Shown here in pieces: positions 3,167 to 21,657 of a stretch of 32,000 nt of DNA. Source of the stretch: Phycisphaera mikurensis NBRC 102666 (GTDB taxonomy: Bacteria; Planctomycetota; Phycisphaerae; Phycisphaerales; Phycisphaeraceae); NCBI RefSeq assembly GCF_000284115.1, contig NC_017080.1:570001-602000 (forward strand). Direction: 5' to 3'. The notes under the pieces are model-generated. The model did no database searches. It saw nothing but the letters and a program-made list of their open reading frames with translations, and was not told where the DNA came from. The translations under genes were made by a program, and so were the position numbers. Position 1 is the first letter of the stretch, and each line of letters opens with the position of its first letter.

Positions 3167-3745
3167 TCAGTCGGCCGCCGGCGCGGGGGTGCCGGGCCCC
3201 GGCTGCGGGTCCGCCGGCTCGCCGGCCACCGCGTCGAGCACGTCGTCGACGAGGTCGTGGGCGGTCATGTCGGCGGCGACGGGCTCGCGGTTGGCGTTGT
3301 TGGCGGTGGCCGAGTCGGGGTCGTCGCCGGTGGTGGGCGTGATGGGCGTCGCGCCGTCGGCTCCGTCCGCGGTGGCGGTCTCGGCGGCGTCGCCGGCGGG
3401 CGCGGCTTCCGCTTCCGCCGCAGCGGCGTCGTCCATCGGGATCTCGAAGACCGGCACCGCCGCCTCGGCCTCGGGCGTGGTGGTCCAGGTGAGGCCCATC
3501 GCCAGCAGCACGAAGACGACGAAGCACGAGGCGGTCACGATGGTGAGGAAGTCGCCGACCTTCGCTCCCACAAACGCCCCCTCGTTGCCGCCGGCGCCGC
3601 CGAAGGCGCCCGAGAGCCCGCCGCCCTTGGGCTTCTGCACGAGGATGATGAGCATCATCAACACCGAGACGAGCGCGAAGAGGGCGGCCAGGACGGTGAC
3701 GAGCACCGGGACGGCGAGGGTGAGCGGGAGGAGCGTGGCGGGCAT
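3167..3745 (-). CDS. secG: Preprotein translocase subunit SecG with a long C-terminal low-complexity extension
   Basis: The N-terminal 80 aa or so match SecG: TM1, then LVQKPKGGGLSGAFGGAGG, then TM2. The gene lies immediately downstream of tpiA, the classic tpiA-secG order. About 110 extra Ala/Asp/Pro-rich residues follow. Confidence 0.85.
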   Translation of the reverse strand: MPATLLPLTLAVPVLVTVLAALFALVSVLMMLIILVQKPKGGGLSGAFGGAGGNEGAFVGAKVGDFLTIVTASCFVVFVLLAMGLTWTTTPEAEAAVPVFEIPMDDAAAAEAEAAPAGDAAETATADGADGATPITPTTGDDPDSATANNANREPVAADMTAHDLVDDVLDAVAGEPADPQPGPGTPAPAAD

Positions 3746-3787
3746 GGCGGAGGGGCCGGCGGGGGCCGGGGGGCGGGGGCGGCCGGC

Positions 3788-4567
3788 TCAGGCCGCGGCG
3801 GAGACGATCGCGAGGAAGTCGGTGCTCTGGAGGGCGGCGCCGCCGATGAGGCCGCCGTCGACGTCGGCGCCGGCGAGCAGGTCCCCCGCGTTGCCGGGCT
3901 TCATCGACCCGCCGTACTGGATGCGCACGCCCGCGGCGGCGTCGGCGCCGTAGAGCGAGACGAGGGCCCGGCGGATCGCCGCGTGGGCGGCCTGGGCGTC
4001 TTCGGGGCTGGCGGTGCGGCCGGTGCCGATCGCCCAGACCGGCTCGTAAGCGACCGTGACGCGGGCGAGGCGCTCGGCGGGCACGCCGGCCAGCCCCAGC
4101 GCGAGCTGGCCGGCGTTGACGGCGTCGGTGCGGCCGTTCTCCCGCTGCTCGAGCTTCTCGCCGATCGCGAGCGTGACGTCGAGGCCGGCCTCCAGCGCCG
4201 CGAGCACCTTCTCGTTCACGAGGGCGTCGCTCTCGCCGAGGACGTGGCGGCGCTCGGAGTGGCCCACGAGCACGGAGGCGACGCCGAGGTCGCTCAGCAT
4301 CGACAGCGAGGTCTCGCCGGTGAAGGCCCCGTCGGGCTGGAAGTAGGCGTTCTGCGCGCCCACGGCGATCGGGGAACCCTTCAGCGTGTCCGCGACCGCC
4401 GCGAGGTGCGGCATCGCCGGGAACACCGTGACGTCGACCCGGTCCTGCGTCGCCCCGGCCACGCCGTCCCGCAGCGCCGCCGCGAGCGAGCGGGCGGCGT
4501 CGAGCGTCAGATTCATCTTCCAGTTGCCGCCGATGTGGGGGCGGCGGGTGGGGGTCGGCGTGGGCAA
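3788..4567 (-). CDS. tpiA: Triosephosphate isomerase
   Basis: Contains GGNWKMN near the N-terminus, plus VLVGHSERR, AYEPVWAIGTG and QYGGS motifs. The ORF track extends to 4726, but conserved TPI sequence begins at HIGGNWKMN. An in-frame TTG at 4567 gives about 259 aa, the normal TPI length. The start remains uncertain. Confidence 0.9.
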   Translation of the reverse strand: MPTPTPTRRPHIGGNWKMNLTLDAARSLAAALRDGVAGATQDRVDVTVFPAMPHLAAVADTLKGSPIAVGAQNAYFQPDGAFTGETSLSMLSDLGVASVLVGHSERRHVLGESDALVNEKVLAALEAGLDVTLAIGEKLEQRENGRTDAVNAGQLALGLAGVPAERLARVTVAYEPVWAIGTGRTASPEDAQAAHAAIRRALVSLYGADAAAGVRIQYGGSMKPGNAGDLLAGADVDGGLIGGAALQSTDFLAIVSAAA

Positions 4568-4847
4568 GCGGGGCTTCCGGGGGTTCAGGGGCGAAACAGC
4601 GGGCGGGGATGATAAAGGTTCCACCCGAGCCGCGGACCGCGACACTTCTCGCGCCGTGCGAGCCGCGGTCCGCGGGTGGCTGTCGATCGAGAGGACCGGC
4701 CGGTGGCGGAAGCCCGGTTCGGCCACGCGAGAGCATCGCGCACGACCATGGAGCCGTCACCGCCTCGCAGGAAGCCGGGCGGGTCCACGCCGAGCAAGGA
4801 GGCTCGCCGTGGCGTATTCGATCGTTCCGCCGGGTTTCGCGGGGTTC

Positions 4848-5016: not shown

Positions 5017-8000
5017 GTGGAACCTCCTGAACCGTCAGGCGAGCCTCGCCCTGCGCCGCGTGCGCAGCTCGGCCCGCCGCCCGCCGCCCGCCGCCCGGCC
5101 GACCTCGAGCCGCTCGAGCAGCGGATCCTGCTGTCCGGCACGTTGGTGTCCTCGCTGAAGGGCCACTGGCGGCTCGATGAAATCGCCGGCTCCACCGCGT
5201 CCAGCGGCGTGGCCGCCGTTCACGCGACTCTCCTCGCGGACGCCGCGTTCGCGCCCGCCGGGGGCCGCCTCGGCGGCGCCCTCTCCCTCTCCGGCTCCGG
5301 GAGCGCCGCCGTCGTCGGCAACGTGCACGACCCCGGCTCCGGCAGCCAGACCGCCAGCATCTGGTTCAGGCGGCCCGGCGGCGGCGCGATCGGCAACGAC
5401 CAGTTCCTCTTTTCCAAGGGCAATCGCTACTCGACCCGCGAGGGCTGGTCGCTGAACCTCGAATCCTCCACGCAGGAGATCCGCTTCCGCGTCAACGGCA
5501 GCGACAGCTCCGCCCAGCGAGCCAGCGTCGAGGCCGACCTGCCGCAGGACGACCGCTGGCACCACCTCGCGGCGGTCATCGATCGCGACGCCGGGACCCT
5601 CCGCGCCTACCTCGACGGCGACGGCTCCGTCTGGCGCACCGGCGGCGGCGGGCCGACCACCCGGAGCCTCGCGTCGGTCACCCACATCGACACCGACGAC
5701 CCGCTGACGCTCGGCGCCGTCCACGACGGCCACCTGCTCCGCGGCAACTTCACCGGCCTGCTCGACGACGCGAGGATCTACGACCGCGGCCTCGGCGAGC
5801 TGGAGATCCAGGCCCTCGCCTCCGGCGCCACCCGCTTCGAGCCTGAGGTTACCGCCACCGGCTCCTCGTCCACCCTCACCGCCGGCGCACCCTCCACGCT
5901 CGGACTCCACGCCGAGCACGCCCGCCCCGACCGCTGGGCCATCGACTGGGGCGACGGCACCAGCGAGGAGCTCGCCGGCGCCGCGGCCTCCCGCGTCCAC
6001 ACCTTCGCTGGCTCCGGCTCCCCGCAGCAGATCGCTGTCACCGCCTTCTACGGAACCGAGGCCTTCCAGGCCCCGATCCGCGACGGCGGCGCCGAGGCCG
6101 ACTTCGCGCTCGGCGGCCGGGCCGTTCTCGACACGGGCAGCCGGAGCTGGATCCGCGACGGCGCCGTGCAGCGCGACGGCAAGCTGGTCGTCGCCGGCGG
6201 CCCGAACTTCACCGTCGCCCGCTTCCTCGCCGACGGCACGCCCGACGCCTCCTTCGGACCGCACGGCACCGGGGTCGTGGAAATCCCCACCGCCGGAGAG
6301 GGCCAAGCGGTCGCCCTCCAGCGCGACGGCAAGATCGTCGTCGCCGGAGGCTCCTGGTTCTCGCTGGCCCGGCTGAACCTCGACGGCTCGCCGGACACGG
6401 GCTTCGGTTCCGCGGGCACCGGCGTCGTCGACGACACCTTCGGCTCGACCTTCGAGGCCAACGACCTTCTGATCCAGGACGACGGCCGCATCGTGCTCGC
6501 CGGCGACGGCGCCGGCGACTTCATCCTCGCCCGCTTCGACCCCGACGGCCGCCGCGACCACTCCTTCGGCGGACCCGGAGCCAACGGCCGCGTGCAGACC
6601 GACCTCTACGGCGCCCGCGACTCCGCCAACGCGATCGCCGCCGGCCGGGACGGACGGCTCTACGTCACCGGTCGCACCACCAGCGCCGGCAGCAGCGACT
6701 ACGACGTGGCGCTCGCCGCTTACTCCGCCGACGGCGGCCTGGACCGGAGCTTCGGCAGCAACGGCCGCGCCCGCGCCGACTTCGGCGACGACGACGAGGC
6801 CGCCTTCGGCATCGACGTGCAGCCCGACGGCCGCGTCGTCGTCGCCGGCCGCTCCCGCGTCTCCGACGCCAACAGCTACGACTTCGCCACCGCCCGCTTC
6901 ACCGCCGGCGGCTTCCTCGACGCCTCCTTCGGCGGCGACGGCACGGTCACCACGCACTTGGGCCGCGGGTACGACGCCGCGTACGGCGTCGTCGTGCTCA
7001 ACACCGGTCAGCTGCTCATCGGCGGCCGCACCTCCGGCCTCGGCACCACCAACGGCTACGACTACGGCGTGGTCCGCCTCGATGCCGACGGCTCGCGAGA
7101 TCTGACCTTCGGTGAGGGCGGCGTCTCCGCGATCGACTTCGAGGGCGAGCGGGACGACGCCGAGGCTCTGGTCGTCGGCAACGACGGGCGGATCTTCCTG
7201 ATCGGGCGAGCCGACGGCAAGATCGGCGTCGCCGCGACGACCGGCTTCGCGGCGCCGGATTCCGGCGGCAGCTTCGGCGCCGGGTGGCGGCTGGCCACGA
7301 TGAAGCCGCACCACGTCTACGGCCCCACCGGCTACGTCGGTGGCGCGCACTACGAGCACCTCCCCATCGTGGCCGAAGACGGCGTCGGTGTGGCCCGGGT
7401 GCTCGCCGGCCAGTCCTTCGTGCTGCCCGGCGACGAGAGCTCGGCGCTGGCCACCACCGGATCGCTGGATTTCACGGCGCAGGCCGGAGCCGCCGCCGCC
7501 TCGGCGGGGCTGATCCTGGCCGGCTTCGCGGAACTGGAAGGATTCGGCGACACACCGAAGCGCAGGCTGAACCTCCGCTGGACGCCCGGCGGCGGCCTCC
7601 TGCTCGAGCAAGGCGGCACGGAGGTGTTCCGGCTGGCCGGTCCATGGGCCGACGGCAACCTCCACCGCTTCACGCTCGCGTGGGAGGGCGATCGCGTCAC
7701 GTTCTTCGCCGACGGAGCCGTCGCCGCGTCCGGCACGCTGGTGGCCGCCACGGACTGGGCATCGTGTTCGCCGATGTTCGGGGACGAGAAGACGGACCAG
7801 CGGGGCACCGCCGCTGCCCAGGTGATCCGCGACGTGACCGTTGGCGAGGGATCTTTCTCGGTGGCGGACGCCGCGGCGGCGGTCGCTGCCGCATCGACCC
7901 CGCTGGCCACGGCTTCTCGAGAAGCCTTCATCGGGTACGAGGCGACCGACGGCAGCTTCTCGCAGAACTTCCTCGCCCAGCGCATCATCTCGCACGACGC

Positions 8001-11000
8001 GGGGGCGCTTGCCGACCCCGCCGAGATCGGCCGCGGCTGGATCCAGGACGGTTCCTTCACGCCGGACGTGCTCCTGCCCGGGCGACCCATCTACCAGACG
8101 CTGCTGTTCGGTGACCCCGGATCTTTTCAGAAAGTTTCGACGGTCTACACCACCGCGTCCGTCTCCGGCCGATCTGACGCCAACCAGATGGTCCGCGTGT
8201 CCAACGGGTGGATCACCGGAGAAGGATCGATGGCGCTGGATCTCACCTCGAAATCGCGGGAGATCCACTGGGGCCTGAACGTCTGGGACCACGATCGCTA
8301 CGTCCAGCACGGACGCTTCAGCCACTACGTGGCGGATGGTGGCGGCGCAGCGAGCACCAACGGCACCCACTCCGACCTCCACCTCGGCTGGACCGATGGC
8401 AAGCGTTTCATCACCTCCGTTCTGCAGGCACCCGCGCCGATCTTCCGCGGGCACGTGAGCATGACCCTCGGCGGTGACCACCGCTTGACCCGGATCGTCC
8501 ACTACCACGACCCCGCCGGATTCGTCGGCTCGGCCCCGATGACGCCGCTTGCCGCCGGTCTTCTGCGGGATCGCACCGGCGACAGCGTGCCGCTCTCGTT
8601 CATCGACGGCCCCGAAGCCGCGCCGGGTCAGACGGTCGGCTATGGCTCGGTGCGGTTGGCCGACGGCTCTTCGCTCGTCGGGATCGGCCTCGGCGCGTAC
8701 CACCACCCGCCGGCGCAGACGCTCGGTGCGTCGACGGCGTTGGGCTCGGGACACGCCCAGACCACCAGCGTCGCTTCGGTGCGTCCCACAGACGCCCGGC
8801 CGGTCTGGATGGGTGCCGCACAGGGCGGATCCACGGAGATCCTCCGTCTGACCTACGACCCGGACGATCTCAGCTCCGCCCGCACCCACCTGGGCACCGG
8901 CTGGATCGACGAGGCGTGGCTGAAGACCACCGACACGCTGAACACCCGCCACTTCATCTCCGCCAATCCCGCGAGCCGCTTCTACCTCGACCCCGACAGC
9001 GACGCCGACGGCGACGGCATCCGCCTTCTCGACGAGCGGCTTTGGTGGAACACCAACCCCGACAGCCTCGACACCGACGGCGACGGCCTGCACGACGACT
9101 ACGAGATCAGCTACCGCCCCGTCCTCGCCGGCCTCGGCGGCACGGTGAATCCTGGCGCTCCCGACGCCGCGAGCGCCTACGCCAGCCAGTCACCCCGGAC
9201 CCAGCTCCGCGAGCTGCAGGTCGGGCAGGGCGACCTCTTCAACCCGCTCGTAAAGGACGACCCCAAGGCCGACTTCGACCGCGACGGCCTGCCGAACTAC
9301 CTCGAATCCTCCTACGGCAGCCACCCCGGCCTCTCCGACACGGATGGCGATGGTGTCTCGGATCTCAAGGAGCACGAGCAGGGCTCCAGCCCGGTGGATC
9401 CCTCCGACCTGGGGCTCGCACCGCCGCTCGCCACAAAAGAGCGCGTGTCCGTCACGGTCGGCGACCCCAGCCCAAGCCACTCCGAGCAGTGGGCGCTGGA
9501 GTTCAACCGCACGACGCCGGGCGGCCCGGGTTCCACCGAGCGGGTCCGCCTGATGGCGCCCGACCACGGCCTGGTCATCACCGAGGACTTCTGGTTCGAC
9601 GTGGGTGCCGACTACACGGGCGTGATCCAGCACGTGGGGTCGAACACCGACCCGCCGGACTACGACTGGACGGCCGACGTCAAGCTGGCGACCGAGCTTC
9701 CGCCGGAGCAGGCGGACCGCCCCCGAGCGGCGTTGACGGTGACCGAGGTCAACAACAAGGATGAGCCGGTGCTGCCCGGAGGCAGCGACTTCAACATCGA
9801 CGAAGGGAAGATCATCGTGCGGCTTCGGCCATCTGTGGAGATTGATCTGGACGTAGATTCCGACAACACGGCCGGCCTGTACGGCGGCCCGGACGGGACC
9901 GACGAGGAGGATGAGCACGAAGACGCTTATGGAGATCCCGAGCACCCGGGAAAGATCCTGCTCGCCAACACGCTCGATCACGACCGCGACCTGATCCCCG
10001 ACTACGCCGACGGCTTCGGGCTCGACGTCGGCATGCCCACCGCAGACCGATCCACAGGCGCCCGCTTCACGCCGCTGAATCTGGAGGTCACCGGCGTCCT
10101 GGAGCTTGTGCCGGAGGCCGTGCTTCGCATCGACTACGCGGCGTCGGTTCCTTTGGAGATCCAGGCCACCCCGTCGGACCTCTTCGCCTTGCCCCAGACC
10201 GGCAACCTCCGGCTCTGGAACCTCGACGCCAGCACGGCACGCAACGGCGAGTCGTTGCTTAACGGGGGGAACTTCGTTGCCCCCGGCGTCTACAGCTTCG
10301 CTGAGCTTGGGCTTAGGCGAGGGGCCTCCAGCGGGCAGTTGTGGCTCGAAGCGGTGGGAGCGAGCGACGTGATTGGCGGCGACCGCATCACCGCATCCGT
10401 CGGGACGCTTCAGGAGGACGACGTCGCGGGTGAAACCTTCTTAACGCTCTTCAGCGACACGGTCGGCTTCACCGCGGTGGAGGTGCAGCTCGAGCAGCGC
10501 AACACCGCGGGCGGCGGCTGGGTAGACGCGAACGGATTCCTGGCCGCCGACCTTCGGCCATTTCCTGACGGCAGCGTTCCGGACCACTTCGTGTACCGCT
10601 TCGCCGTGGAGGACCCACGCTTTGAGGCAGAAACGATCACCCTCGGTAATCACGACCTCTCGCTGAGCGGCGGGTCGGTCCGCTACAGCGAAGAGTTCGG
10701 GGTGGCCCGACCAGGTCAGGCCGGGATGGCAGATTCGAGCTATCTGATCCTCTCGGCGGGCGAAGTCGACTTCTCCTACAACCCGAACGGCAGCTACCCG
10801 GTGGAGTGGGTGGACGACGTGGCCGCCGCGGACCGCGAGGTCGCTGCCGAGGTCGATCGGGCCGTGACGGACATGCACGGGAGGTGGGCGGCTCCGGCTC
10901 CGGAGCCGGGCAACTCGCCGAACCCCGGTGCGTTCGGCAACGAGGTGCATCGCCGCGTCAGCGAGCGGCTGCAGGGGCGGCCGGGTTGGCTCGTGGACGT

Positions 11001-11604
11001 CGTGGTGGACGAACAAACCAACCGCGTCGTGAAGATCGGGGGCGGACCCGGCGGCAGCGGCACCACGCAGGTGGACCTGATCAAGCTCAGGAGCGGGGTG
11101 TCGCCGGAGGTCGGCGACGTCTTGGCGAAAGAAGACATCAAGGGGGTTTACGACATCAAATCATCGGCTTCAGGAAACGTCCCGCGGGCTCAACGATTGA
11201 AGCTCAAGGTCGTGAGCCAGGGTGGTGCCGCTGCCAACCAGGGTGGCGCGGGAGAAGTGAAGGTGACGCGCACCCGGTACCGCTGGACCGCCGGAGGGGG
11301 CTGGACGGAAAATCTAAAAGTCGCTCGTTCGCTGAAGGTGATGTCGGCCTTCGGGCTGACCACCACGGCTTCGGCCTTCGTCCACGCGGACGAGCTCGAC
11401 GCGGAGCTGCTCGACGTGGTCGCCGCGTTCGAGGAAGCCAAGCGGGTGGACCTGACGCAGCGCCCCGGCGTGCTGGCCATCGCGACGGGCAAGTTCGCCA
11501 ACTACCTGAGCCACTTCGACCCGAGCGGCAACGTGCAGGCGCTCTCGCTCGCGGCCTTCCTGCAGGTGCTCAGCAGCGACGCCTTTGAGCGGGGGGACCT
11601 GTGA
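5017..11604 (+). CDS. Giant multidomain exoprotein; candidate polymorphic toxin with a C-terminal PD-(D/E)xK-like nuclease module
   Basis: 2195-aa ORF with the following regions.
- N-terminal LEPLEQRILLS motif (5104-5136).
- LamG/ConA-like domain ending LDDARIYDRGL (about 5167-5817).
- PKD-like WAIDWGDGTSE...HTF (about 5850-6060).
- About 7 delta-60-type repeats, DGK(I/L)VVAG...ARxxxDG(S/T)xDxSFG (about 6150-7240).
- Second LamG-like segment (about 7560-7760).
- Thrombospondin-type-3 Ca-binding repeats: DSDADGDG, DTDGDGLHD, DRDGLPN, DTDGDGVSD (about 8989-9410, with another acidic cluster at 9846-10020).
- Lower-GC C-terminal region (about 10800-11604) containing GNEVH, QVDLIKL and VYDIKSS, which I read as an H...D...(D)xK restriction-endonuclease-fold pattern.
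The toxin call is inference. The CDS itself is solid. Confidence 0.8.
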   Translation: MEPPEPSGEPRPAPRAQLGPPPAARRPADLEPLEQRILLSGTLVSSLKGHWRLDEIAGSTASSGVAAVHATLLADAAFAPAGGRLGGALSLSGSGSAAVVGNVHDPGSGSQTASIWFRRPGGGAIGNDQFLFSKGNRYSTREGWSLNLESSTQEIRFRVNGSDSSAQRASVEADLPQDDRWHHLAAVIDRDAGTLRAYLDGDGSVWRTGGGGPTTRSLASVTHIDTDDPLTLGAVHDGHLLRGNFTGLLDDARIYDRGLGELEIQALASGATRFEPEVTATGSSSTLTAGAPSTLGLHAEHARPDRWAIDWGDGTSEELAGAAASRVHTFAGSGSPQQIAVTAFYGTEAFQAPIRDGGAEADFALGGRAVLDTGSRSWIRDGAVQRDGKLVVAGGPNFTVARFLADGTPDASFGPHGTGVVEIPTAGEGQAVALQRDGKIVVAGGSWFSLARLNLDGSPDTGFGSAGTGVVDDTFGSTFEANDLLIQDDGRIVLAGDGAGDFILARFDPDGRRDHSFGGPGANGRVQTDLYGARDSANAIAAGRDGRLYVTGRTTSAGSSDYDVALAAYSADGGLDRSFGSNGRARADFGDDDEAAFGIDVQPDGRVVVAGRSRVSDANSYDFATARFTAGGFLDASFGGDGTVTTHLGRGYDAAYGVVVLNTGQLLIGGRTSGLGTTNGYDYGVVRLDADGSRDLTFGEGGVSAIDFEGERDDAEALVVGNDGRIFLIGRADGKIGVAATTGFAAPDSGGSFGAGWRLATMKPHHVYGPTGYVGGAHYEHLPIVAEDGVGVARVLAGQSFVLPGDESSALATTGSLDFTAQAGAAAASAGLILAGFAELEGFGDTPKRRLNLRWTPGGGLLLEQGGTEVFRLAGPWADGNLHRFTLAWEGDRVTFFADGAVAASGTLVAATDWASCSPMFGDEKTDQRGTAAAQVIRDVTVGEGSFSVADAAAAVAAASTPLATASREAFIGYEATDGSFSQNFLAQRIISHDAGALADPAEIGRGWIQDGSFTPDVLLPGRPIYQTLLFGDPGSFQKVSTVYTTASVSGRSDANQMVRVSNGWITGEGSMALDLTSKSREIHWGLNVWDHDRYVQHGRFSHYVADGGGAASTNGTHSDLHLGWTDGKRFITSVLQAPAPIFRGHVSMTLGGDHRLTRIVHYHDPAGFVGSAPMTPLAAGLLRDRTGDSVPLSFIDGPEAAPGQTVGYGSVRLADGSSLVGIGLGAYHHPPAQTLGASTALGSGHAQTTSVASVRPTDARPVWMGAAQGGSTEILRLTYDPDDLSSARTHLGTGWIDEAWLKTTDTLNTRHFISANPASRFYLDPDSDADGDGIRLLDERLWWNTNPDSLDTDGDGLHDDYEISYRPVLAGLGGTVNPGAPDAASAYASQSPRTQLRELQVGQGDLFNPLVKDDPKADFDRDGLPNYLESSYGSHPGLSDTDGDGVSDLKEHEQGSSPVDPSDLGLAPPLATKERVSVTVGDPSPSHSEQWALEFNRTTPGGPGSTERVRLMAPDHGLVITEDFWFDVGADYTGVIQHVGSNTDPPDYDWTADVKLATELPPEQADRPRAALTVTEVNNKDEPVLPGGSDFNIDEGKIIVRLRPSVEIDLDVDSDNTAGLYGGPDGTDEEDEHEDAYGDPEHPGKILLANTLDHDRDLIPDYADGFGLDVGMPTADRSTGARFTPLNLEVTGVLELVPEAVLRIDYAASVPLEIQATPSDLFALPQTGNLRLWNLDASTARNGESLLNGGNFVAPGVYSFAELGLRRGASSGQLWLEAVGASDVIGGDRITASVGTLQEDDVAGETFLTLFSDTVGFTAVEVQLEQRNTAGGGWVDANGFLAADLRPFPDGSVPDHFVYRFAVEDPRFEAETITLGNHDLSLSGGSVRYSEEFGVARPGQAGMADSSYLILSAGEVDFSYNPNGSYPVEWVDDVAAADREVAAEVDRAVTDMHGRWAAPAPEPGNSPNPGAFGNEVHRRVSERLQGRPGWLVDVVVDEQTNRVVKIGGGPGGSGTTQVDLIKLRSGVSPEVGDVLAKEDIKGVYDIKSSASGNVPRAQRLKLKVVSQGGAAANQGGAGEVKVTRTRYRWTAGGGWTENLKVARSLKVMSAFGLTTTASAFVHADELDAELLDVVAAFEEAKRVDLTQRPGVLAIATGKFANYLSHFDPSGNVQALSLAAFLQVLSSDAFERGDL

Positions 11605-12212
11605 ACGACGGCCGTCGAAGCTACATCCACTTGTTCTGGGACATCCCCATCCCGGACTGGAAGCGAACCCTGGTCGAGATGGTGCGGGTCGCGGAGCTGG
11701 GGCATCCAAGAGCGGAAGTCCACGCGTGCGAGATCGACGGCTACGACGTGTGGATGCGGGAGGACGAGTTTTACTCCGAGGAAGAACCCCTCGCCATGAT
11801 GCCGCGGTCCGACGTCCGAACGTCGGACGCCCCCCCCCTCCGCGGCTCCCGGCTCATGTACATCGACTTCATTGGGCAAGCCGAGAGAAGACTGCGGCTG
11901 GCGGAGCTGGTGGAGTCTCTACAGGCGCGGATCCCGGAGGAGATCAGCGGCGGCGTCTTCCCGCCCTGGGATCCCTTCGTCAAGATCGGCCGCCACACCG
12001 TCTGGCAGCGACTCGGCGAGCAACCCAACGGCACGTTCGGGCCGCTCCTGCACGGGCGGCCGACGCTGTCGCTGTCCATCTCGGGTGACAACGGGCCCAA
12101 GCGCCAGGACGAGTACCGAAAACTCGTGCTCAGCGATCCCGTTCTCGCTGCACTCCGCGGCGACCTCGAGGTGAAGTTCGGCCCTTCGCAGGTCGTGATG
12201 TTCTGGGATTGA
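11601..12212 (+). CDS. Hypothetical protein; candidate cognate immunity protein of the upstream C-terminal module
   Basis: 203-aa ORF. Its GTG start (11601) overlaps the giant gene's TGA (11602-11604), a GTGA 4-nt overlap indicating translational coupling. It has no signal peptide, no family I recognise, and lower GC, like the adjacent C-terminal module. Confidence 0.6.
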   Translation: MNDGRRSYIHLFWDIPIPDWKRTLVEMVRVAELGHPRAEVHACEIDGYDVWMREDEFYSEEEPLAMMPRSDVRTSDAPPLRGSRLMYIDFIGQAERRLRLAELVESLQARIPEEISGGVFPPWDPFVKIGRHTVWQRLGEQPNGTFGPLLHGRPTLSLSISGDNGPKRQDEYRKLVLSDPVLAALRGDLEVKFGPSQVVMFWD

Positions 12213-12237
12213 ATCCCAAGCTCTCATGAGGCCGCTT

Positions 12238-12347
12238 TCTCAAGGGAGCGGAAAAGGTGACAGCCACGGCCCGCCGGGGCCTGGGCTGAATGCCGTTGCG
12301 GGGGCGGAAAAGGGGGCGAATGGCGGGGCGGAAAAGGTGACAGCCAC
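12238..12347. repeat. Left boundary repeats: TCTCAAG...GCGGAAAAGGTGACAGCCAC (twice, direct) interspersed with GCCGGGGCCTGGGCT
   Basis: GCGGAAAAGGTGACAGCCAC occurs at 12248-12267 and 12328-12347. Its reverse complement occurs at 20256-20291. TCTCAAG at 12238-12244 matches CTTGAGA at 20306-20312. Confidence 0.7.
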
Positions 12348-12501
12348 GAATGGGGCTCGCCGGGGCCTGGGCTCGCCGGGCTCGCCGGGCTCGCCGGGGC
12401 CTGGCCACCTCGCAGGAGGCGTTGCTTCTTCCGGACGGTTTCTGTACGGTCCTCCTGCCGGGTCGCGTGACCCGCTCCCTCGCTCCTTCCGGAGGCTCCC
12501 T

Positions 12502-13503
12502 GTGCCGCGCCGCAACCGCTGCCTGATCGTCGACCCCGACCTCCCGCAGGCGTGGCACGTCAGCAACCGCTGCGCGAGGTCTCTGTTCCTGCTGGAGCCC
12601 GAGGCACAAGACCGCGGGGATCGGGAGCCGGAGGACCACCGCAAGGAGCTGCTGCTGGCGAGGCTGGAGAAGCTGGCGGCGGTCAGCTCCATCGAGGTGC
12701 TGGCCTTCAGCGTCGTGGGCAACCACCTGCACCTGGTCCTGCGCAACGTGCCCAAGGTCGGCCACGCCTGGTCGCCGCAGGAGGTGCTGGACCGCTGGCT
12801 GGCGCTGCACCCGCTGCGGAACCGCCAGGGCCCGCGGGAGCCCGAGGCCGGCGAGCTGGAGGCGCTGGTGGCCGACGAAGCGTGGGTTGCCGCCACGAGG
12901 CGGAAGCTGATGGACCTCTCGCAGTTCATGAAAGAGCTCAAGCAGCACGTGGCGGTGAAGGTGAACAAGCTCGAGAGCGGCAGCGGCGCCTTCTGGAGCG
13001 GTCGGTACAAGAGCAAGCCGATCGACGATCCCGAGGGTCACCAGCTGGTGCGTTCGATGGTGTACGTGGACCTGAACCCCCTGGCGGCGGGGCTGTGCGA
13101 TCGACCCGAGGACGGCCGCCACACCTCGCTGGAGGGGCGGCTGGGGCGGGACGGACCGGCCACGTCGGCCGGTGATCCTCTCGAGCGGGCACCCAGCGCC
13201 GCCTTCCGCCGCTCCCGCAGCGCCTCGTGGCTGGTGCCGCTGGTGGGCGAGGATCCCAGGTCGCGGATGCACGAAGCCGCCCGTGCCGCATCGGCGGCCG
13301 TGCCCGCTGCAGGCCGCACCGTCTTGGCCGGTCTGACCCTACGTCGGTACCTGCGTGTGGTGGACGCCGTTTCGCGTCTCTTGCGTGCAGGCAAGGCCTC
13401 GCTGGACCGCCGGCTGGCACCGATCCTCGAGCGTGTGGGCCTGGGCCCGGAGGACCTCCGCGTCGGCTTCACGCGTATGGCCACCGGCTCGCCGCACTTC
13501 TGA
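12502..13503 (+). CDS. HUH (Y1) transposase, IS200/IS605 TnpA-like / REP-associated tyrosine transposase (RAYT)-like, copy 1
   Basis: Motifs are WHVSNRCARSLFLL, the HUH motif GNHLHLVLR, FWSGRYKSKPI and VYVDLNPLAAGL (the tyrosine / Y-x-x-x-NP region). The start is placed at GTG 12502, preceded by GGAGG at 12491-12495. Sequence upstream of that is repeat DNA, and it differs between the copies further 5'. Confidence 0.8.
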   Translation: MPRRNRCLIVDPDLPQAWHVSNRCARSLFLLEPEAQDRGDREPEDHRKELLLARLEKLAAVSSIEVLAFSVVGNHLHLVLRNVPKVGHAWSPQEVLDRWLALHPLRNRQGPREPEAGELEALVADEAWVAATRRKLMDLSQFMKELKQHVAVKVNKLESGSGAFWSGRYKSKPIDDPEGHQLVRSMVYVDLNPLAAGLCDRPEDGRHTSLEGRLGRDGPATSAGDPLERAPSAAFRRSRSASWLVPLVGEDPRSRMHEAARAASAAVPAAGRTVLAGLTLRRYLRVVDAVSRLLRAGKASLDRRLAPILERVGLGPEDLRVGFTRMATGSPHF

Positions 13504-13700
13504 CGCCAGCGGATCCGGGTTCCAGCGTCCCCGGCCGGTAGGCTGGCGGGTGTGTCATGCGCCACGCCAGCGGCATCACCCAACGCGAGAGCCGCGCGGG
13601 CTCGCAAACGGCTGGCGCTTGCCCGCGAGGACGCGGGAGGCCGCGCAACCTGCCCGAGCGGTCCGATCCGCGTCGAATGTGGAGGGGGCACCCGGACAGG
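13504..13700 (+). repeat. Conserved right-end (RE) segment, copy 1, with nested hairpins
   Basis: CGCCAGC...GCTGGCG stems at 13504-13549 and 13565-13617. There is an inner palindrome GAGCCGCGCGGGCTC and a CCCGCG-AGGA-CGCGGG hairpin. The segment is near-identical at 15127-15320 and 16945-17160. Confidence 0.75.
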
Positions 13701-13995
13701 GTCTAGGCCCCGGCAGACACCCGGCAGACACCCGGCAGACACCGGCAGACACCGGCAGACACAGACAGACGGTGTCCAGGCCCCGGCAGATCCAGACGGT
13801 GTCCAGGCCCCGGCAGATCCCCGGCAGATCCGGCAGATCCAGACGGTGTCCAGGCCCCGGCAGATCCCGGCAGATCCAGACGGTGTCCAGGCCCCGGCAG
13901 ATCCGGCAGATCCGATCGGCAGATCCCAGGCCCCGGCAGATCCCGTGTCCAGGCCCCGGCAGCCCCCCAGACGGTGTCCAGGCCCCGGCAGATCC
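13701..13995. repeat. REP-like / microsatellite array A
   Basis: About 8 copies of (GACGGTGTC)CAGGCCCCGGCAGATCC, interleaved with 9-11-nt units (CCGGCAGACAC, CCGGCAGATC). Confidence 0.85.
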
Positions 13996-14121
13996 ACCTG
14001 GTCGCCGGGCTCGCCGGGGCCTGGCCAGCTCACAGGAGGCGTTGCTTCTTCCGGACGGTTTCTGTACGGTCCTCCTGCCGGGTCGCGTGACCCGCTCCCT
14101 CGCTCCTTCCGGAGGCTCCCT

Positions 14122-15126
14122 GTGCCGCGCCGCAACCGCTGCCTGATCGTCGACCCCGACCTCCCGCAGGCGTGGCACGTCAGCAACCGCTGCGCGAGGT
14201 CTCTGTTCCTGCTGGAGCCCGGAGCCCAAGACCGCGGGGATCGCGAGCCGGAGGACCACCGCAAGGAGCTGCTGCTGGCGAGGCTGGAGAAGCTGGCGGC
14301 GGTCAGCTCCATCGAGGTGCTGGCCTTCAGCGTCATGGGCAACCACCTGCACCTGGTCCTGCGCAACGTGCCCGAGGTCGGCCACGCCTGGTCGCCGCGG
14401 GAGGTGCTGGACCGCTGGCTCGCCCTGCACCCGCTGCGGAACCGCCAGGGCCCGCGGGAGCCCGAGCCCGGCGAGCTGGAGGCGCTGGTGGCCGACAAAG
14501 GGTGGGTCGCCGCCACGAGGCGGAAGCTGATGGACCTCTCGCAGTTCATGAAAGAGCTCAAGCAGCACGTGGCCGTGGCCGTCAACAAGCTCGAGAGCGG
14601 CAGCGGCGCCTTCTGGAGCGGTCGGTACAAGAGCAAGCCGATCGACGATCCCGAGGGTCACCAGCTGGTGCGTTCGATGGTGTACGTGGACCTGAACCCC
14701 CTGGCGGCGGGGCTGTGCGATCGACCCGAGGACGGCCGGCACACCTCGCTGGAGGGGCGGCTGGGGCGGGACCAGCCAGCAACCCCGCAGCAAGCCGAGC
14801 CCGCCGAGCGGGCACCCACCGCCGCCTTCCGCCGCTCCCGCAGCGCCTCGTGGCTGGTGCCGCTGGCGGGCGAGGATCCCAGGTCGCGGATGCACGAAGC
14901 CGCCCGTGCCGCATCGGCGGCCGTGCCCGCTGCAGGCCGCACCGTCTTGGCCGGTCTGACCCTGCGTCGGTACCTGCGTGTGGTGGACGCCGTGTCGCGT
15001 CTCCTGCGTTCGGGCAAGGCCTCGCTGGACCGCCGTCTCGCGCCGATCCTCGAGCGTGTGGGCCTGGGCCCGGAGGACCTCCGCGTCGGCTTCGCGCGGA
15101 TGGCCACCGGCTCGCCGCACTTCTGA
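14122..15126 (+). CDS. HUH (Y1) transposase, IS200/RAYT-like, copy 2
   Basis: Same motifs as copy 1 (GNHLHLVLR, FWSGRYKSKPI, VYVDLNPLAAGL), with scattered substitutions and one short indel region (GRDQPATPQQAEPAE versus GRDGPATSAGDPLE). GTG 14122 is homologous to 12502. Both copies are intact. Confidence 0.8.
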   Translation: MPRRNRCLIVDPDLPQAWHVSNRCARSLFLLEPGAQDRGDREPEDHRKELLLARLEKLAAVSSIEVLAFSVMGNHLHLVLRNVPEVGHAWSPREVLDRWLALHPLRNRQGPREPEPGELEALVADKGWVAATRRKLMDLSQFMKELKQHVAVAVNKLESGSGAFWSGRYKSKPIDDPEGHQLVRSMVYVDLNPLAAGLCDRPEDGRHTSLEGRLGRDQPATPQQAEPAERAPTAAFRRSRSASWLVPLAGEDPRSRMHEAARAASAAVPAAGRTVLAGLTLRRYLRVVDAVSRLLRSGKASLDRRLAPILERVGLGPEDLRVGFARMATGSPHF

Positions 15127-15292
15127 CGCCAGCGGATCCAGGTTCCAGCGTCCCCGGCCGGTAGGCTGGCGGGTGTGTCATGCGCCACGCCAGCGGCATC
15201 ACCCAACGCGAGAGCCGCGCGGGCTCGCGAACGGCTGGCGCTTGCCCGCGAGGACGCGGGAGGCCGCGCAGGATGCTCCGAGCGGTCCGATC

Positions 15293-15447
15293 CGCGTCGG
15301 ATGTGGAGGGGGCACCCGGACGGTGTCCAGGCCCCGGCAGATCCCGCGTCGGATGTGGAGGGGGCACCCGGACGGTGTCCAGGCCCCGGCAGATCCCCGG
15401 CAGATCCCGGCAGATCCGGCAGATCCGGCAGATCCCGGCAGATCCGG
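15293..15447. repeat. REP-like / microsatellite array B, including a perfect 52-nt tandem duplication
   Basis: The unit CGCGTCGGATGTGGAGGGGGCACCCGGACGGTGTCCAGGCCCCGGCAGATCC occurs at 15293-15344 and 15345-15396. About 5 units of C(C)(C)GGCAGATC follow. Confidence 0.85.
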
Positions 15448-15641
15448 ATGGGTTTCACGGAATCTTGATCGACATCCTTCCTGAGTCCCCGGCCGTACCG
15501 TTCAGCAAAGCACAAGTCAAGGATGGTCTTCGCGAGGCGTATCGAAGATGGGCACATAAGGAAAGTACTCCATTCAATGAGTCTGAAGGAGCGAGATTGG
15601 CGGACGTACTCGATGCCTTTATCGACCGACTGCCAGATTGA
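15447..15641 (+). pseudogene. Start-less C-terminal gene fragment (orphan toxin-tip candidate 1)
   Basis: GC drops to about 50% (121/240 by hand count over 15481-15720). The frame reads ...ILIDILPESPAVPFSKAQVKDGLREAYRRWAHKESTPFNESEGARLADVLDAFIDRLPD*. It stops 4 nt before the ATG of the next ORF and has no start codon of its own after the repeat junction. Confidence 0.45.
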
Positions 15642-15645
15642 TCGT

Positions 15646-16533
15646 ATGCCTGTCCACATAAAGATCACTGTCTTTGAGCATTCCATAGGCTCGGAACATT
15701 TTGCAGAACTCTGCAAAGCTTATCCAGAGAATTTGCTGCCCTCCGGGCTATTTCGGATTACCCGAGAGCCGACGGATGCGAGAATGGTCCAAGTCCAAAA
15801 GCACCTCGCAGAATACGGGCTCAGACCTGCGCAAATGGGAGAGTCTTCTGGTGACGATGTTTATTGGGCCGACCCCGTGTCAGTCCCGACGCCCAAACAG
15901 CTTGCGGAAGCCGAGTGGTTCTCAATTGAGAACATGCTTGCAACCCGCGGCGACCGACTGCACAACGAGGAACTCGAATGGAAGGTGGAAGAGTGCGAAG
16001 ATGAAGGCGATCGTGAACACTGGCAAGAAACTCCGGTCCACGGCTGCTACGGCGCCGCCATCATGGTGACGGAGCAGATCGCGGAGGTGATCCGCGGCTG
16101 GGAAGCGCCCGAGCTGCGGGTGCAGCCGGTCCACTATCACACGCGCGACTGGTCCTCGAACACCAAGGTGCCCATGGAGTGGCGGGAGGCGGGGCTCGAG
16201 CCGCGGTTCTCCGTCGCCAGCCGGCTCACGCTGCCGCTGATGTCGGAGACCTGTCAGCCGGTCCACCGCCGCAGGGGCACGCCCCTGCCGCGAGGTTCGG
16301 ACGAGCCCGCGGCCATGCGACGACCCGAGGGCGAAGAGCAGTTCTGGTGCTACAAGCAGTCGGAGGTGGAGCAAATGCCTCCGTTCGACCTGGCCATGAC
16401 CCACGAGCGCCTAGGAAACTCTTCTCGAGCTCCACTGAACCACGGGCTGGTCTTCTCGAGACGCCTCACCGAACTGCTCAGCAGCGAAGACCCCAACATC
16501 ACCTGGTGGCCGGTGATGTTCGAGGACGAGTAG
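15646..16533 (+). CDS. Hypothetical protein; candidate orphan immunity protein 1
   Basis: Begins ATG 15646 (MPVHIKITVFEHS...). About 295 aa, acidic, no signal peptide. It contains two segments ending in a pattern seen in some immunity families (AIMVTEQIAEVIRGWEAPELRVQPV and LVFSRRLTELLSSEDPNITWWPV); that family resemblance is weak. The ORF track's 15523 start would overlap the preceding fragment. Confidence 0.6.
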   Translation: MPVHIKITVFEHSIGSEHFAELCKAYPENLLPSGLFRITREPTDARMVQVQKHLAEYGLRPAQMGESSGDDVYWADPVSVPTPKQLAEAEWFSIENMLATRGDRLHNEELEWKVEECEDEGDREHWQETPVHGCYGAAIMVTEQIAEVIRGWEAPELRVQPVHYHTRDWSSNTKVPMEWREAGLEPRFSVASRLTLPLMSETCQPVHRRRGTPLPRGSDEPAAMRRPEGEEQFWCYKQSEVEQMPPFDLAMTHERLGNSSRAPLNHGLVFSRRLTELLSSEDPNITWWPVMFEDE

Positions 16534-16584
16534 CGCTACCACGCGAGAAGGTGGACGCCGGGAGACGCCGGGGCCTAAACACCG

Positions 16585-16735
16585 GGGCGGAAAAGGCGGA
16601 AGGGCGGAGCGGAAAATGAGCGGAAAAGATGCCGGCCACCAAACCCACACGACCGCTCTGATCAGCGCACGCTCGGCTTTGCCGGGGCCTGGCCACCGCG
16701 GTTCGGGGGTTCGGGGGCCTGGCCACCGCGGGTCG
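16585..16735. repeat. GCGGAAAAG motif cluster followed by two REP-like units
   Basis: GCGGAAAAGG, GCGGAAAATG and GCGGAAAAGA occur at 16586-16630. GCCGGGGCCTGGCCACCGCGG occurs twice at 16681-16733. This is the same motif order seen after the first immunity candidate (12246-12410). Confidence 0.7.
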
Positions 16736-16944
16736 CGGCCGTGCCCGCTGCAGGCCGCACCGTCCTGGCCGGTCTGACCCTGCGTCGGTACCTGCGTTCG
16801 GTGGACGCCGTTTCGCGTCTCTTGCGTGCAGGCAAGGCCTCGCTGGACCGCCGTCTCGCGCCGATCTTCGAGCGTGTGGGCCTGGGCCCGGAGGACCTCC
16901 GCGTCGGCTTCACGCGTATGGCCACCGGCTCGCCGCACTTCTGA
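16735..16944 (+). pseudogene. 3' remnant of a third IS200/RAYT-like transposase copy
   Basis: Encodes ...AVPAAGRTVLAGLTLRRYLRSVDAVSRLLRAGKASLDRRLAPIFERVGLGPEDLRVGFTRMATGSPHF*, matching the last 68 aa or so of copies 1 and 2. The REP unit is joined directly to internal transposase sequence, consistent with an internal deletion. Confidence 0.8.
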
Positions 16945-17174
16945 CGCCAGCGGATCCAGGTTCCAGCGTCCCCGGCCGGTAGGCTGGCGGGTGTGTCATG
17001 CGCCACGCCAGCGGCATCACCCAACGCGAGAGCCGCGCGGGCTCGCAAACGGCTGGCGCTTGCCCGCGAGGACGCGGGAGGCCGCGGGAGGCCGCGCAGG
17101 ATGCTCCGAGCGGTCCGATCCGCGTCGGATGTGGAGGGGGCACCCGGACGGTGTCCAGGCCCCGGCAGATCCCC
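16945..17174 (+). repeat. Conserved right-end (RE) segment, copy 3
   Basis: Near-identical to 13504-13700 and 15127-15344. It carries a 10-nt tandem duplication (GGGAGGCCGC twice, 17076-17095) and ends GGCCCCGGCAGATCCCC at the junction with orphan tip 2. Confidence 0.8.
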
Positions 17175-17588
17175 GCCTTCGTCCGATTCGTTAATCGCGC
17201 CGACTTCGAAGCCGGCAGCAACGCTCGCCTCGTCCCGGCCGCCGACGGCAGCGGCCGCCAGACGATCGTCCTCGGGACCGCGCAGGCCACGGGCGAGACC
17301 GCTACGCACGCCAATCAGGTCAACGCGATCGCGCAGCAGCTGGCCGAGTCCGGCGATTGGGCGCACATCTCCCTTGACCGCAACTACCGAACGGCGACGG
17401 GGCGGGTTTTCGACCCGAAAGTTGCCAATCCGCTGAATGGCAACCAAATGGTTTCGCCTCGGCCGGACATCGTTGCGGTGGGGCGGGATGGGAGGATGCA
17501 GGTGTTCGAGGTGCAGTCCGAGGGGCAGAACTTCGATCAGTTGGCCGAATACGTCAGAAGGCAGGAGGCCGCCGCCGTCCACGATTGA
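17175..17588 (+). pseudogene. Start-less C-terminal module with a PD-(D/E)xK-type nuclease motif (orphan toxin-tip candidate 2)
   Basis: Reads AFVRFVNRADFEAG...THANQVNAIAQQLAESGDWAHISLDRNYRTATGRV...SPRPDIVAVGRDGRMQVFEVQSEGQ...*. RPD-(x13)-E-V-Q-S is the classic restriction-endonuclease-fold core. There is no start codon of its own; the only in-frame ATG is inside the RE at 16998. Confidence 0.5.
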
Positions 17589-18622
17589 CCGGGGACCACC
17601 GTCACGTTCCGGACCATCGAAGCCGGAGGCTCGTTGTGATACTCGCTGACATCCAGCAGGATCCAGAGGGCCTTGCATACTTCCAGACGGTCAGCGATTG
17701 CGTGTTGGAGCCATGCAACGGCTGTGATCTTCGTTCAGTCTTCACTTGGGCGATGACGCTCAAGCCGATGGACGAGGTGCCTATCACGCAGGTTGCCGGG
17801 TCTGGAAAGAACATCCCGCGGAACAAGGTGGCGCCGTACCGGCGCGGGAAAGGTCAGCTGCCGACGGAATCGGATCATGAATTCCAGGGCGTCAGCGCGG
17901 CGCATCAGCTTCGCACTTCCGGTTATCAGCAAACGGATGCCGGGTTCTACCTCTCGCTCGATCGCGTCGATAAGTTCGGCTACGCTTGGCCAGATGGAGC
18001 GTATCTCCGCCTCAAGCTGCTGATCGACTGCGAGGAATACGCAATCCCTTTCGTCGAACATGTCGCAGAGTTCCTGCACGGCCCGTTCTCCGGTCAGATC
18101 CGACGGGGCAGTGTCTTTCGCATGTCGCGGTTTGCTGGACCCACCGGTTACCTGATCGGGGTCGGAACGGGCTTCGTGCCGAGTTCCACGCGTCCTCGGC
18201 ACAACGATCGGTTGCTTGAGGGTTACTTCAACAACCGAAGCGGCGGCGTCTCAAATCATGCTCCGCACCAGGTCATCCGCGAGGTCTACCCCGTCAACCT
18301 TTTGCCCAACGAGGTGCTGACGATGCCCTGGGGCAAGACGGCCCGGACGCTGGGCGAGGCACTGAAGGAACACCCCGGGACGGCCCGCTTCGAGCGGTAC
18401 AACGACCACTGCTGGCGCTGGGAGCCGCACTGGGAGGCGATCGAGACGCTGCGGGTCGACCTGTTCCGGGCCGGCCGGCTGTGGTACCAGAAGATGGACG
18501 CGTGGCAGCAGCCGGACTGGCACCGCCCCGACTGGTCGGCGCCGTACGAGTACACCGGCGAGCTGCCGGACTTCGTGAAGCCCGGCTGGTCGGACTTCTG
18601 GGCCCACGGGTACACGCCGTGA
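17585..18622 (+). CDS. Hypothetical protein; candidate orphan immunity protein 2
   Basis: The ORF begins at a TTG overlapping the preceding TGA (TTGA, 17585-17588). An alternative GTG lies at 17636. GC is about 59% over 17641-17880 by hand count. The third-codon-position G/C bias favours this frame over the antisense ORF at 17735-18202. The C-terminal half is Trp-rich (WRWEPHWEAIETL...WYQKMDAWQQPDWHRPDW). No family recognised. Confidence 0.6.
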   Translation: MTGDHRHVPDHRSRRLVVILADIQQDPEGLAYFQTVSDCVLEPCNGCDLRSVFTWAMTLKPMDEVPITQVAGSGKNIPRNKVAPYRRGKGQLPTESDHEFQGVSAAHQLRTSGYQQTDAGFYLSLDRVDKFGYAWPDGAYLRLKLLIDCEEYAIPFVEHVAEFLHGPFSGQIRRGSVFRMSRFAGPTGYLIGVGTGFVPSSTRPRHNDRLLEGYFNNRSGGVSNHAPHQVIREVYPVNLLPNEVLTMPWGKTARTLGEALKEHPGTARFERYNDHCWRWEPHWEAIETLRVDLFRAGRLWYQKMDAWQQPDWHRPDWSAPYEYTGELPDFVKPGWSDFWAHGYTP

Positions 18623-18704
18623 GAAGCACAACAGATCCACCATGCGACCGTTGGCTGCGCCCGCTGCGGGCGATGCTCCCAGCGACCAGGAACCTCGCGG
18701 AATG

Positions 18705-18887
18705 GGCCCCGGCAGCGCCAGGCCCCGGCAGCGCGGGCAGCGGTATCCAGGCCCCGGCAGCCCCCGGCAGCCCCGGCAGCCCCCGTGAATGGGCTTTGCC
18801 GGGGCCTGGCCACCGCGGTTCGGGGCCTGGCCACCGCGGTTCCGGGGCCTGGCCACCGCGGTTCCCGGGGCCTGGCCACCGCGGTTC
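18705..18887. repeat. Head-to-head REP cluster (array D)
   Basis: Positions 18705-18780 carry GGCCCCGGCAG(C) units in right-end orientation. Positions 18797-18887 carry four tandem 21-23-nt units, GGGGCCTGGCCACCGCGGTTC(C)(C), in left-end orientation. The cores CCAGGCCCCGG and CCGGGGCCTGG are reverse complements. Confidence 0.85.
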
Positions 18888-18950
18888 CACTTGCAAGATA
18901 CCCACTGCCTCGACCGCCACAACCCCGCCCTCACCGGCCTCACCGGCCTC

Positions 18951-21027: not shown

Positions 21028-21054
21028 GCGGCGAGCGTACGCGCGGCGGGGGCC

Positions 21055-21651: not shown

Positions 21652-21657
21652 GGCGGG

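Follow-up and report, generated by a model that had tools for sequence, protein, structure and literature searches.

A putative nuclease toxin domain and a candidate immunity protein at the C-terminal end of a large lectin- and propeller-bearing protein of Phycisphaera mikurensis

The question raised by the 32,000-nucleotide (nt) stretch of Phycisphaera mikurensis NBRC 102666 considered here (contig NC_017080.1, positions 570,001 to 602,000 of the forward strand, referred to below as the window) is whether the last part of one very large protein is a toxin and, if so, what kind of protein carries it. The protein is the product of the open reading frame (ORF) at 5017-11604, which in DNA with a G+C content (GC) of about 0.72 is the sole long frame with coding-type codon bias throughout, its GC at third codon positions (GC3) lying at the coding-type values of 0.8-0.96 over the whole length. 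A database entry from the same strain, PSMK_05160, named only as a hypothetical protein, matches the product with 100% identity. An earlier note, made from the DNA letters alone, had described a carrier with LamG, PKD, delta-60 propeller and TSP3 parts, had suspected a toxin at its C-terminus and had proposed that, if so, the whole would be an undescribed delivery scaffold. The answer reached here is that PSMK_05160 is probably a polymorphic-toxin-type effector that is exported and resembles an adhesin, and in which a restriction-endonuclease (REase)-like toxin made up of two domains, C and D, is accompanied by a candidate for its cognate immunity protein. The coordinates of these and the other features are collected in Table 1.

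The evidence that carries this answer starts with the distribution of the C-D domains. A word-indexed search found one relative for the last 264 amino acids (aa) and three for a profile that also included the preceding domain B. An exhaustive HMMER search with a two-sequence profile against 1.84 billion representatives placed C-D in 217 clusters, 56 of them at E<=1e-30. Among the matches listed, the proteins with a detected C-D tail vary in length from 100 to 3019 aa, and in 118 of 121 of them the tail ends no more than 30 aa from the C-terminus. The members that were looked up are metagenomic proteins, and a profile scan of genomes returned one locus only. The family is known almost entirely from metagenomes. 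Pfam did not recognise C-D in single sequences, in tiles or in 42 members searched at E<=1, where the matches were scattered and of the kind expected by chance, and sequence searches of the PDB with profiles of 2 and of 42 sequences returned nothing relevant. The ~265 aa of C-D appear to form a new, previously unclassified domain family.

In two relatives this family occupies the place of cargo toxins in Rhs proteins. In P0261 a canonical Rhs core end (RYYDPATGTW..NLYRYVFNMPTVATDPTGES; Pfam RHS_repeat E 2e-12) leads directly into C-D; it reads RYYDPATGTWANPDPIVFEGGDGNLYRYVFNMPTVATDPTGES, and this is the position at which Rhs cargo toxins sit. In P0162 C-D follows a degenerate Rhs core end (RHS_repeat E 4e-28). 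The N-terminal parts of 43 long members include FG-GAP, dockerin, TSP3, fn3, RTX, LamG, RCC1, Calx-beta, cadherin, DUF5122 and RHS domains. The earlier note had called for a survey of proteins that share the body of PSMK_05160 and differ at the C-terminus, and this is loosely what is seen in P0002, which shares the first 740 aa together with TSP3, A and B1 and then continues into RHS repeats rather than C-D. The wider family speaks less for such exchange, since B, C and D form a single unit in 49 of the 62 members in which C is preceded by 350 aa or more, B being found within 100 aa of C in those 49 and anywhere upstream in 56. A 259-aa protein, P0121, was considered as a stand-alone toxin and rejected as a fragment of a truncated larger gene; it is probably a fragment because the locus (L001 3-2769) holds an insertion sequence (IS)-type transposase gene and a B-like ORF with a frame change before C-D, on a contig of 1x coverage.

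Conservation within the family points to an active site. Across 128 sequences D2020 is conserved in 100%, K2048 in 99%, Q2059 and G1974 in 95% each and H1978 in 79%, while position 2046 is D or E, which gives the pattern E..D..[DE]xK..Q. An AlphaFold2 model of C-D built on an alignment of 42 sequences was predicted with a mean local confidence (pLDDT) of 88.4 and a global score (pTM) of 0.82. Its elements follow the order helix (with E1976), strand, strand, strand (D2020), strand ([DE]xK), helix (Q2059) and strand, the motif residues lying on H41-54, E85-93, E110-117 and H126-136, and after this core comes the tail D with five helices, one of which is hydrophobic and rich in glycine and alanine. 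PD-(D/E)xK nucleases are marked by an acidic residue and a (D/E)xK motif on neighbouring strands and by an E or Q carried on a helix, all of which are present in the predicted C-D structure. The pattern also agrees with the residues "E, D, ExK, Q" that have been given for restriction-endonuclease-fold toxins as their signature (Zhang, de Souza, Anantharaman, Iyer & Aravind 2012, PMC3482391). When the deep model was compared with the PDB in Foldseek, the two best neighbours were both NucC, a nuclease of the REase fold, at E values of 0.1 and 0.76 that are not significant, and a shallow model gave nothing. The assignment of C-D as a putative nuclease is one of motif and predicted topology and not of demonstrated family membership.

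Directly after the large gene, and overlapping its stop codon (GTGA), lies the gene for a 203-aa protein. Its homologues, at 29-33% identity and E values of 1e-8 to 1e-38, align from their first residues and are found 0-15 nt downstream of the C-D gene at four further independent loci, namely L002, L004/L005 and L006, with a weak match at L008. At the metagenomic locus L003 the C-D gene is followed instead by a gene (3204-4214) for a leucine-rich repeat (LRR_6) protein of the ribonuclease-inhibitor (RI) type, and LRR-repeat proteins are among the immunity proteins of polymorphic toxin systems (Zhang et al., PMC3482391). The 203-aa protein itself matched nothing in Pfam or the PDB, and neither a signal peptide nor a transmembrane segment is visible in it. 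The partner family appears to be a new candidate immunity family, immunity being the function that its position and conservation would suggest. The toxin-like C-terminus suspected in the earlier note is in this way supported by the 217 clusters, the C-terminal place, the Rhs tips, the E/D/[DE]xK/Q motif and the coupled downstream gene.

The part of the protein that precedes C-D is also shared. The earlier note could not assign aa 1470-1950, and it is true that this region matched nothing in Pfam; iterative searches within the family nevertheless resolve aa 1470-1935 as two domains, A (1470-1600) and B (1605-1935), so that what had seemed a one-off sequence is a recurrent pre-toxin block of A, B1 and B2. 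The full order TSP3-A-B-C-D recurs in several members, and a comparable arrangement, with PKD, delta-60 propeller, four copies of B1 and then B2-C-D, is found in P0123 at about 30% identity. The first ~225 aa of B, here called B1, show the pattern DxDxDSDN...PGKxILVN..DxDxDG.PDYADGF...LRLW, and B1 is found in tandem in relatives, with six copies in L007 besides the four of P0123. It also occurs apart from C-D: two copies stand before the Rhs shell in P0002, two stand directly before Pfam PAD_M and PAD in P0270, a secreted protein-arginine deiminase, and in P0271 (L010 2896-5229) one copy stands before a cysteine domain resembling the transglutaminase (TGase) elicitor, that gene being followed by two tandem 366-aa genes whose products are 61% identical to each other. 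B1 did not match PF08527 (PAD_M) directly in Pfam; it is probably a PAD_M-like calcium-binding domain of the immunoglobulin (Ig) type, since hhalign aligned it with the PAD_M region of P0270 (probability 60%, E 8e-5, 186 columns).

The B2 domain ends in the residues Y-N-P at aa 1921-1923 (10777-10785), conserved across 94 sequences in 79%, 69% and 91%, respectively. These stand about 35 residues before the invariant-like W1957, and in the Rhs-borne copies the DPxG motif stands at an equal distance. Because its position matches that of the Rhs DPxG cleavage motif, YNP marks the predicted boundary between B2 and C and with it the start of the C-terminal cassette; that it might be an Asn-Pro (auto)processing site is speculative. 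The pre-toxin block TSP3-A-B1-B2-YNP, with its alternative heads, appears to be new.

The body of the protein was scanned with Pfam, NCBIfam and PADLOC as a whole and in seven tiles, and most of what the earlier note had recognised by eye was recovered. The first LamG domain and the delta-60 propeller, with six delta-60/DUF5122 repeats, are strong matches, and the TSP3 repeats, which are common to PSMK_05160 and P0002, have moderate support. The PKD domain gave no direct Pfam match in the whole protein or the tiles, and is supported by an iterative match of aa 273-350 to the Pfam PKD/PKD_4 segments of relatives (for example, P0112 1119-1194 against PKD_4 at 1119-1196). The second LamG is weak and below the Pfam cutoff. 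The closest homologue of the body is P0002, with 54% identity over aa 37-740. No match was obtained in these scans at aa 946-1319 or 1470-2195, the regions in which a known trafficking domain might have been concealed; aa 946-1319 found only themselves with jackhmmer and are peculiar to PSMK_05160 among all of the sequences retrieved. In searches with Pfam, NCBIfam and for motifs, the RHS, PAAR, LXG, WXG, filamentous haemagglutinin (FHA) and MafB domains and the VENN motif were absent, as the earlier note had stated, and so was the DPxGL motif, a "PAAR" tetrapeptide at aa 22 being a chance string. The classical trafficking and pre-toxin domains are indeed absent, and what had been overlooked is a recognised N-terminal motif, LEPR-XLL.

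This motif (LEPLEQRILLS) scores 17.3 bits against a cutoff of 17 for NF012209, which is marginal, and it bears on where the protein begins, the database entry for PSMK_05160 being 42 residues shorter than the frame read from the GTG codon at 5017. The GTG start is preferable, as judged from the sequence, because it includes the LEPR-XLL motif and because the homologue P0002 has the same motif above its own annotated start. There LLESRMLLS lies in frame just 5' of the annotated start (L011 9812-10000), the database start is apparently too short, and an upstream in-frame methionine would give a basic N-terminus followed by the motif. Within the family, LExRxLL motifs are seen in five members and clear Sec signal peptides in many.

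Table 1. Features of PSMK_05160 and its partner gene, with positions given in the window.
Feature	Residues (aa)	Position (nt)	Strand	Basis
Whole gene PSMK_05160, 2195 aa + stop		5017..11604	+	codon bias, database identity, GTG start
LEPR-XLL N-terminal motif, LEPLEQRILLSGTLV	30-44	5104..5148	+	NCBIfam NF012209
LamG / concanavalin-like lectin domain	94-265	5296..5811	+	Laminin_G_3 E 1e-20, Laminin_G_2 E 1e-5
PKD-like Ig domain, WAIDWGDGT	~273-350	5833..6066	+	iterative match to relatives' PKD/PKD_4
Delta-60 (DUF5122) beta-propeller, at least 6 blades	~365-735	6109..7221	+	TIGR02608 E 2e-62, PF17164 E 2e-33
Weak second LamG-like region	~850-945	7564..7851	+	Laminin_G_3 tile E 0.004, below Pfam cutoff
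Region without domain match	946-1319	7852..8973	+	no Pfam match; jackhmmer finds itself only
Bacterial TSP3 calcium-binding repeats	~1320-1468	8974..9420	+	TSP3_bac tile E 1e-5; NF047639 MtsD-like E 8e-6
Domain A	~1470-1600	9424..9816	+	after TSP3 in P0002, P0131, P0140, P0147, P0151, P0180, P0267
Domain B1, probable PAD_M-like calcium-binding Ig-type module, DxDxDSDN...PGKxLLxN..DxDxDxxPDYADGF...LRLW	~1605-1830	9829..10506	+	in-family searches, hhalign against PAD_M
Domain B2, DPR and terminal Y-N-P motifs	~1831-1923	10507..10785	+	candidate demarcation/processing boundary
Domain C, helix + alpha-beta core, putative PD-(D/E)xK-type nuclease toxin	~1932-2110	10810..11346	+	conservation, AlphaFold2 model
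Domain D, helical tail with G/A-rich hydrophobic helix	~2111-2195	11347..11601	+	in-family searches, AlphaFold2 model
203-aa gene, GTG start overlapping toxin stop (GTGA), candidate immunity protein		11601..12212	+	synteny, homologues

The anatomy suggests how such a protein might work. The LEPR-XLL N-terminal region would direct export, as the relatives with LExRxLL motifs or ordinary Sec signal peptides lead us to infer, and the LamG domain, the PKD-like domain, the delta-60 propeller and the weak second LamG would bind a cell surface or a glycan. The TSP3 repeats together with A and B1 may form a calcium-stiffened stalk, at the end of which the Y-N-P of B2 would mark the start of a mobile C-terminal cassette, with any processing there being speculative. 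C-D would most likely kill a neighbouring cell as a metal-dependent nuclease, and the translationally coupled 203-aa product (11601-12212) would, as the cognate immunity protein, shield the producer. The sequence analysis itself shows the anatomy, the spread of the family, its occurrences at Rhs tips and the synteny and conservation of the partner gene; the route of export, the delivery, the nuclease activity and the immunity are deduced from these. A bolder proposal joins these parts further. TSP3-A-B1-B2-YNP would then be a distinct toxin-presenting stalk, largely of the Planctomycetota, and the counterpart of the FHA and pre-toxin region of CdiA or of the Rhs shell; the Asn-Pro would be a site of autoprocessing and release, the D tail a membrane-entry element carrying the REase-like nuclease, and delivery would follow LEPR-XLL export independently of Rhs and of the type V, VI and VII secretion systems (T5SS, T6SS and T7SS). 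This extended proposal is rather doubtful.

Several observations weigh against the view of PSMK_05160 as an exported polymorphic-toxin-type effector. A hydrophobic signal peptide is not recognisable at its N-terminus, where there is the LEPR-XLL region only, and no genes for secretion or delivery machinery lie close by. The partner family (~190-203 aa), whose gene abuts or overlaps the stop codon of the C-D gene, is common to only 5-6 of the 10 loci. In the proposed active site E1976 is conserved in only 71% of the 128 sequences, and the deep model compared with the PDB and BFVD in Foldseek gave only hints of NucC and PD-(D/E)XK proteins, none of them significant. B-C-D is usually one inherited block, and the tip is no more diverged than the stalk, both being at about 31-33% identity. 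Since the block is mostly inherited as a single piece, polymorphism of the tip among close relatives is not demonstrated; a close paralogue was not found, and a tblastn search of the window showed no orphan C-D fragment downstream.

Some of these observations would suit a different role, that of a secreted or surface-tethered nuclease for nutrient scavenging or for the remodelling of extracellular DNA and biofilm, with the downstream gene encoding an intracellular inhibitor in the style of barnase/barstar or NucA/NuiA, by which the producer would be guarded until the enzyme is exported. The motif, the topology and the partner gene fit such a nuclease equally well, a large body of lectin, propeller and calcium-binding parts suits attachment to polymers or particles, delivery machinery is not encoded in the window and the RI-type LRR partner at L003 has a classical nuclease-inhibitor fold. 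Against it, C-D is Rhs cargo in P0261 and P0162, and Rhs tips are known as toxins that are delivered into other cells; moreover, the B1 stalk module is common to other toxin-like heads, and a scavenging enzyme has no need for a conserved helical hydrophobic tail beside its catalytic core. This role is considered unlikely. It is also quite improbable that the protein is simply an adhesin or surface protein in which C-D serves as a module for sorting, anchoring or membrane insertion and the downstream gene as a partner in export or assembly. In favour of this role, C-D stands at the very end of many proteins with extracellular-type domains, as C-terminal sorting domains would be expected to do, the G/A-rich hydrophobic helix of D is conserved and no significant nuclease match was found; however, C-D comprises ~265 aa, and its globular alpha-beta core, predicted with confidence, contains D, K and Q residues that are 95-100% conserved, as is typical of an active site, and the partner has no visible signal peptide or transmembrane segment and is substituted by an LRR protein at L003. 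Since C-D also occurs after the Rhs core-end motif, in the place of cargo toxins, and since its polar residues are invariant, a sorting or anchoring role is left as only a minor alternative.

The DNA around the gene bears on a further explanation, that recombination beside mobile elements has left a chimeric or decaying gene and not a functioning system. The 5' flank is ordinary housekeeping DNA, since tpiA and secG (3167-4726, minus strand) lie immediately upstream and divergent from the large gene; beyond them are yicC and a sulfatase gene. Directly downstream of the toxin and partner genes are two ORFs that are 94% identical to each other and weakly similar to IS200/Y1_Tnp transposases (12226-13503 and 13552-15126), with a third IS200/Y1-like fragment at 16753-16941, short repeated segments at 13557-13722, 15180-15416 and 17103-17174, and, further on, three ORFs without an assigned family and a Mutator-family transposase gene (18789-20114). 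Near nt 8000, inside the large gene, the GC drops from ~0.74 to ~0.68, and it remains low as far as about 19 kb, with values of 0.62-0.69 at 15-19 kb. This drop points to separate histories for the P0002-like 5' body, which is 54% identical to its homologue, and for the remaining 3' two-thirds of the gene with the downstream island. Decay would account for this shift and for the IS200-like and Mutator transposase genes, for the middle 580 aa that have no relatives and for the L001 homologue cut off by an IS element. It is nonetheless very improbable, for the 6.6-kb reading frame is intact with coding-type GC3 throughout, every conserved residue has been retained, the partner gene, too, is intact and coupled in translation, and the parallel architecture of P0123 persists at ~30% identity. 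Three findings make each of these alternatives less likely than the polymorphic-toxin-type effector: C-D is found at Rhs tips, its polar triad is invariant and the two coupled genes are intact.

Other features of the surroundings were seen in passing. The sequence at ~8000-19000, from the 3' stretch of the large gene through the island, looks distinct in composition. The last residues of a 196-aa ORF within the island (16998-17588), RPDIVAVGRDGRMQVFEVQS, look to the eye like a PD..ExQ restriction-endonuclease motif, and this ORF is overlapped by 4 nt by an ORF of 345 aa (17585-18622); neither matched Pfam or the PDB, and the two may be a second toxin/immunity-like pair. Farther away, at 21000-26000, the GC rises to 0.80-0.83 and long overlapping ORFs without a Pfam match occur on both strands, for example at 22230-23777 and 23895-25415 on the minus strand.

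To our knowledge, inter-bacterial antagonism in the Planctomycetota is almost unstudied. If the favoured interpretation of PSMK_05160 as a toxin-bearing effector is correct, the locus offers a new toxin family of 217 clusters, a candidate immunity family and a conserved non-Rhs stalk on which arginine-deiminase and transglutaminase-like heads are found as well. Each of these is anchored in a cultured and sequenced strain, P. mikurensis NBRC 102666, and is thereby open to testing there. The widespread and unexplained LEPR-XLL N-terminal motif would at the same time gain a tractable cargo. Searches of the literature found no description of PSMK_05160, the delta-60 repeat or the C-D toxin family.

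Of the single domains, C-D resembles the PD-(D/E)xK Tox-REase families in its E..D..[DE]xK..Q pattern and its alpha-beta-beta-beta-alpha-beta-like order, with NucC as the nearest solved structure, and differs from them in an extra strand, an N-terminal helix, the ~85-aa helical tail D and the absence of a significant match. B1 begins with the same DxDxD..DG...E....G.ILVN.D.D pattern as PAD_M (PF08527), but unlike PAD_M it is found in tandem in up to six copies and coupled to heads other than PAD.

For the protein as a whole, the kinship with Rhs/YD-repeat toxins is seen in P0002, which shares aa 37-740 and TSP3-A-B1, and in P0261 and P0162, in which C-D is the post-core cargo; RHS/YD repeats and the DPxG core end are present in these three relatives, whereas PSMK_05160 lacks RHS/YD repeats (PF05593), the DPxGL core end and an encapsulating shell, and its putative toxin comes after B2 and YNP. 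The CdiA/CdiI system of the T5SS is similar in outline, since there too a long extracellular stalk and a short boundary motif lead to a modular nuclease-type toxin at the C-terminus, with an immunity gene directly downstream, the features that are proposed here from sequence. Yet PSMK_05160 has no two-partner secretion (TPS) domain, FHA repeats, VENN motif or nearby CdiB gene, and its stalk consists instead of lectin, propeller, TSP3 and Ig modules. PAAR, VgrG, LXG and WXG, the features of toxins borne by the T6SS and T7SS, were not found in it with Pfam or NCBIfam.

The closest likeness is to the polymorphic toxins that depend on Sec and the type II secretion system (T2SS), for which beta-propeller repeats and N-terminal laminin-G adhesion domains have been listed (Zhang et al. 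2012, PMC3482391). Since both were already on that list, the phrase "undescribed delivery scaffold" of the earlier note was too strong. Like the members of this class, PSMK_05160 is a multidomain and probably exported protein that bears its putative toxin at the very C-terminus and has an immunity gene, here a candidate, immediately downstream; also shared is a single toxin domain that is joined to unrelated N-termini and, in the case of C-D, is borne on Rhs proteins as well. What sets PSMK_05160 apart is that C-D, the partner and A, B1 and B2 match no Pfam model, including those that arose from the PMC3482391 survey, and that a LEPR-XLL N-terminus is not among the trafficking domains listed. 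The carrier is thus a variation on the theme of the Sec-dependent polymorphic toxins rather than a categorically new system.

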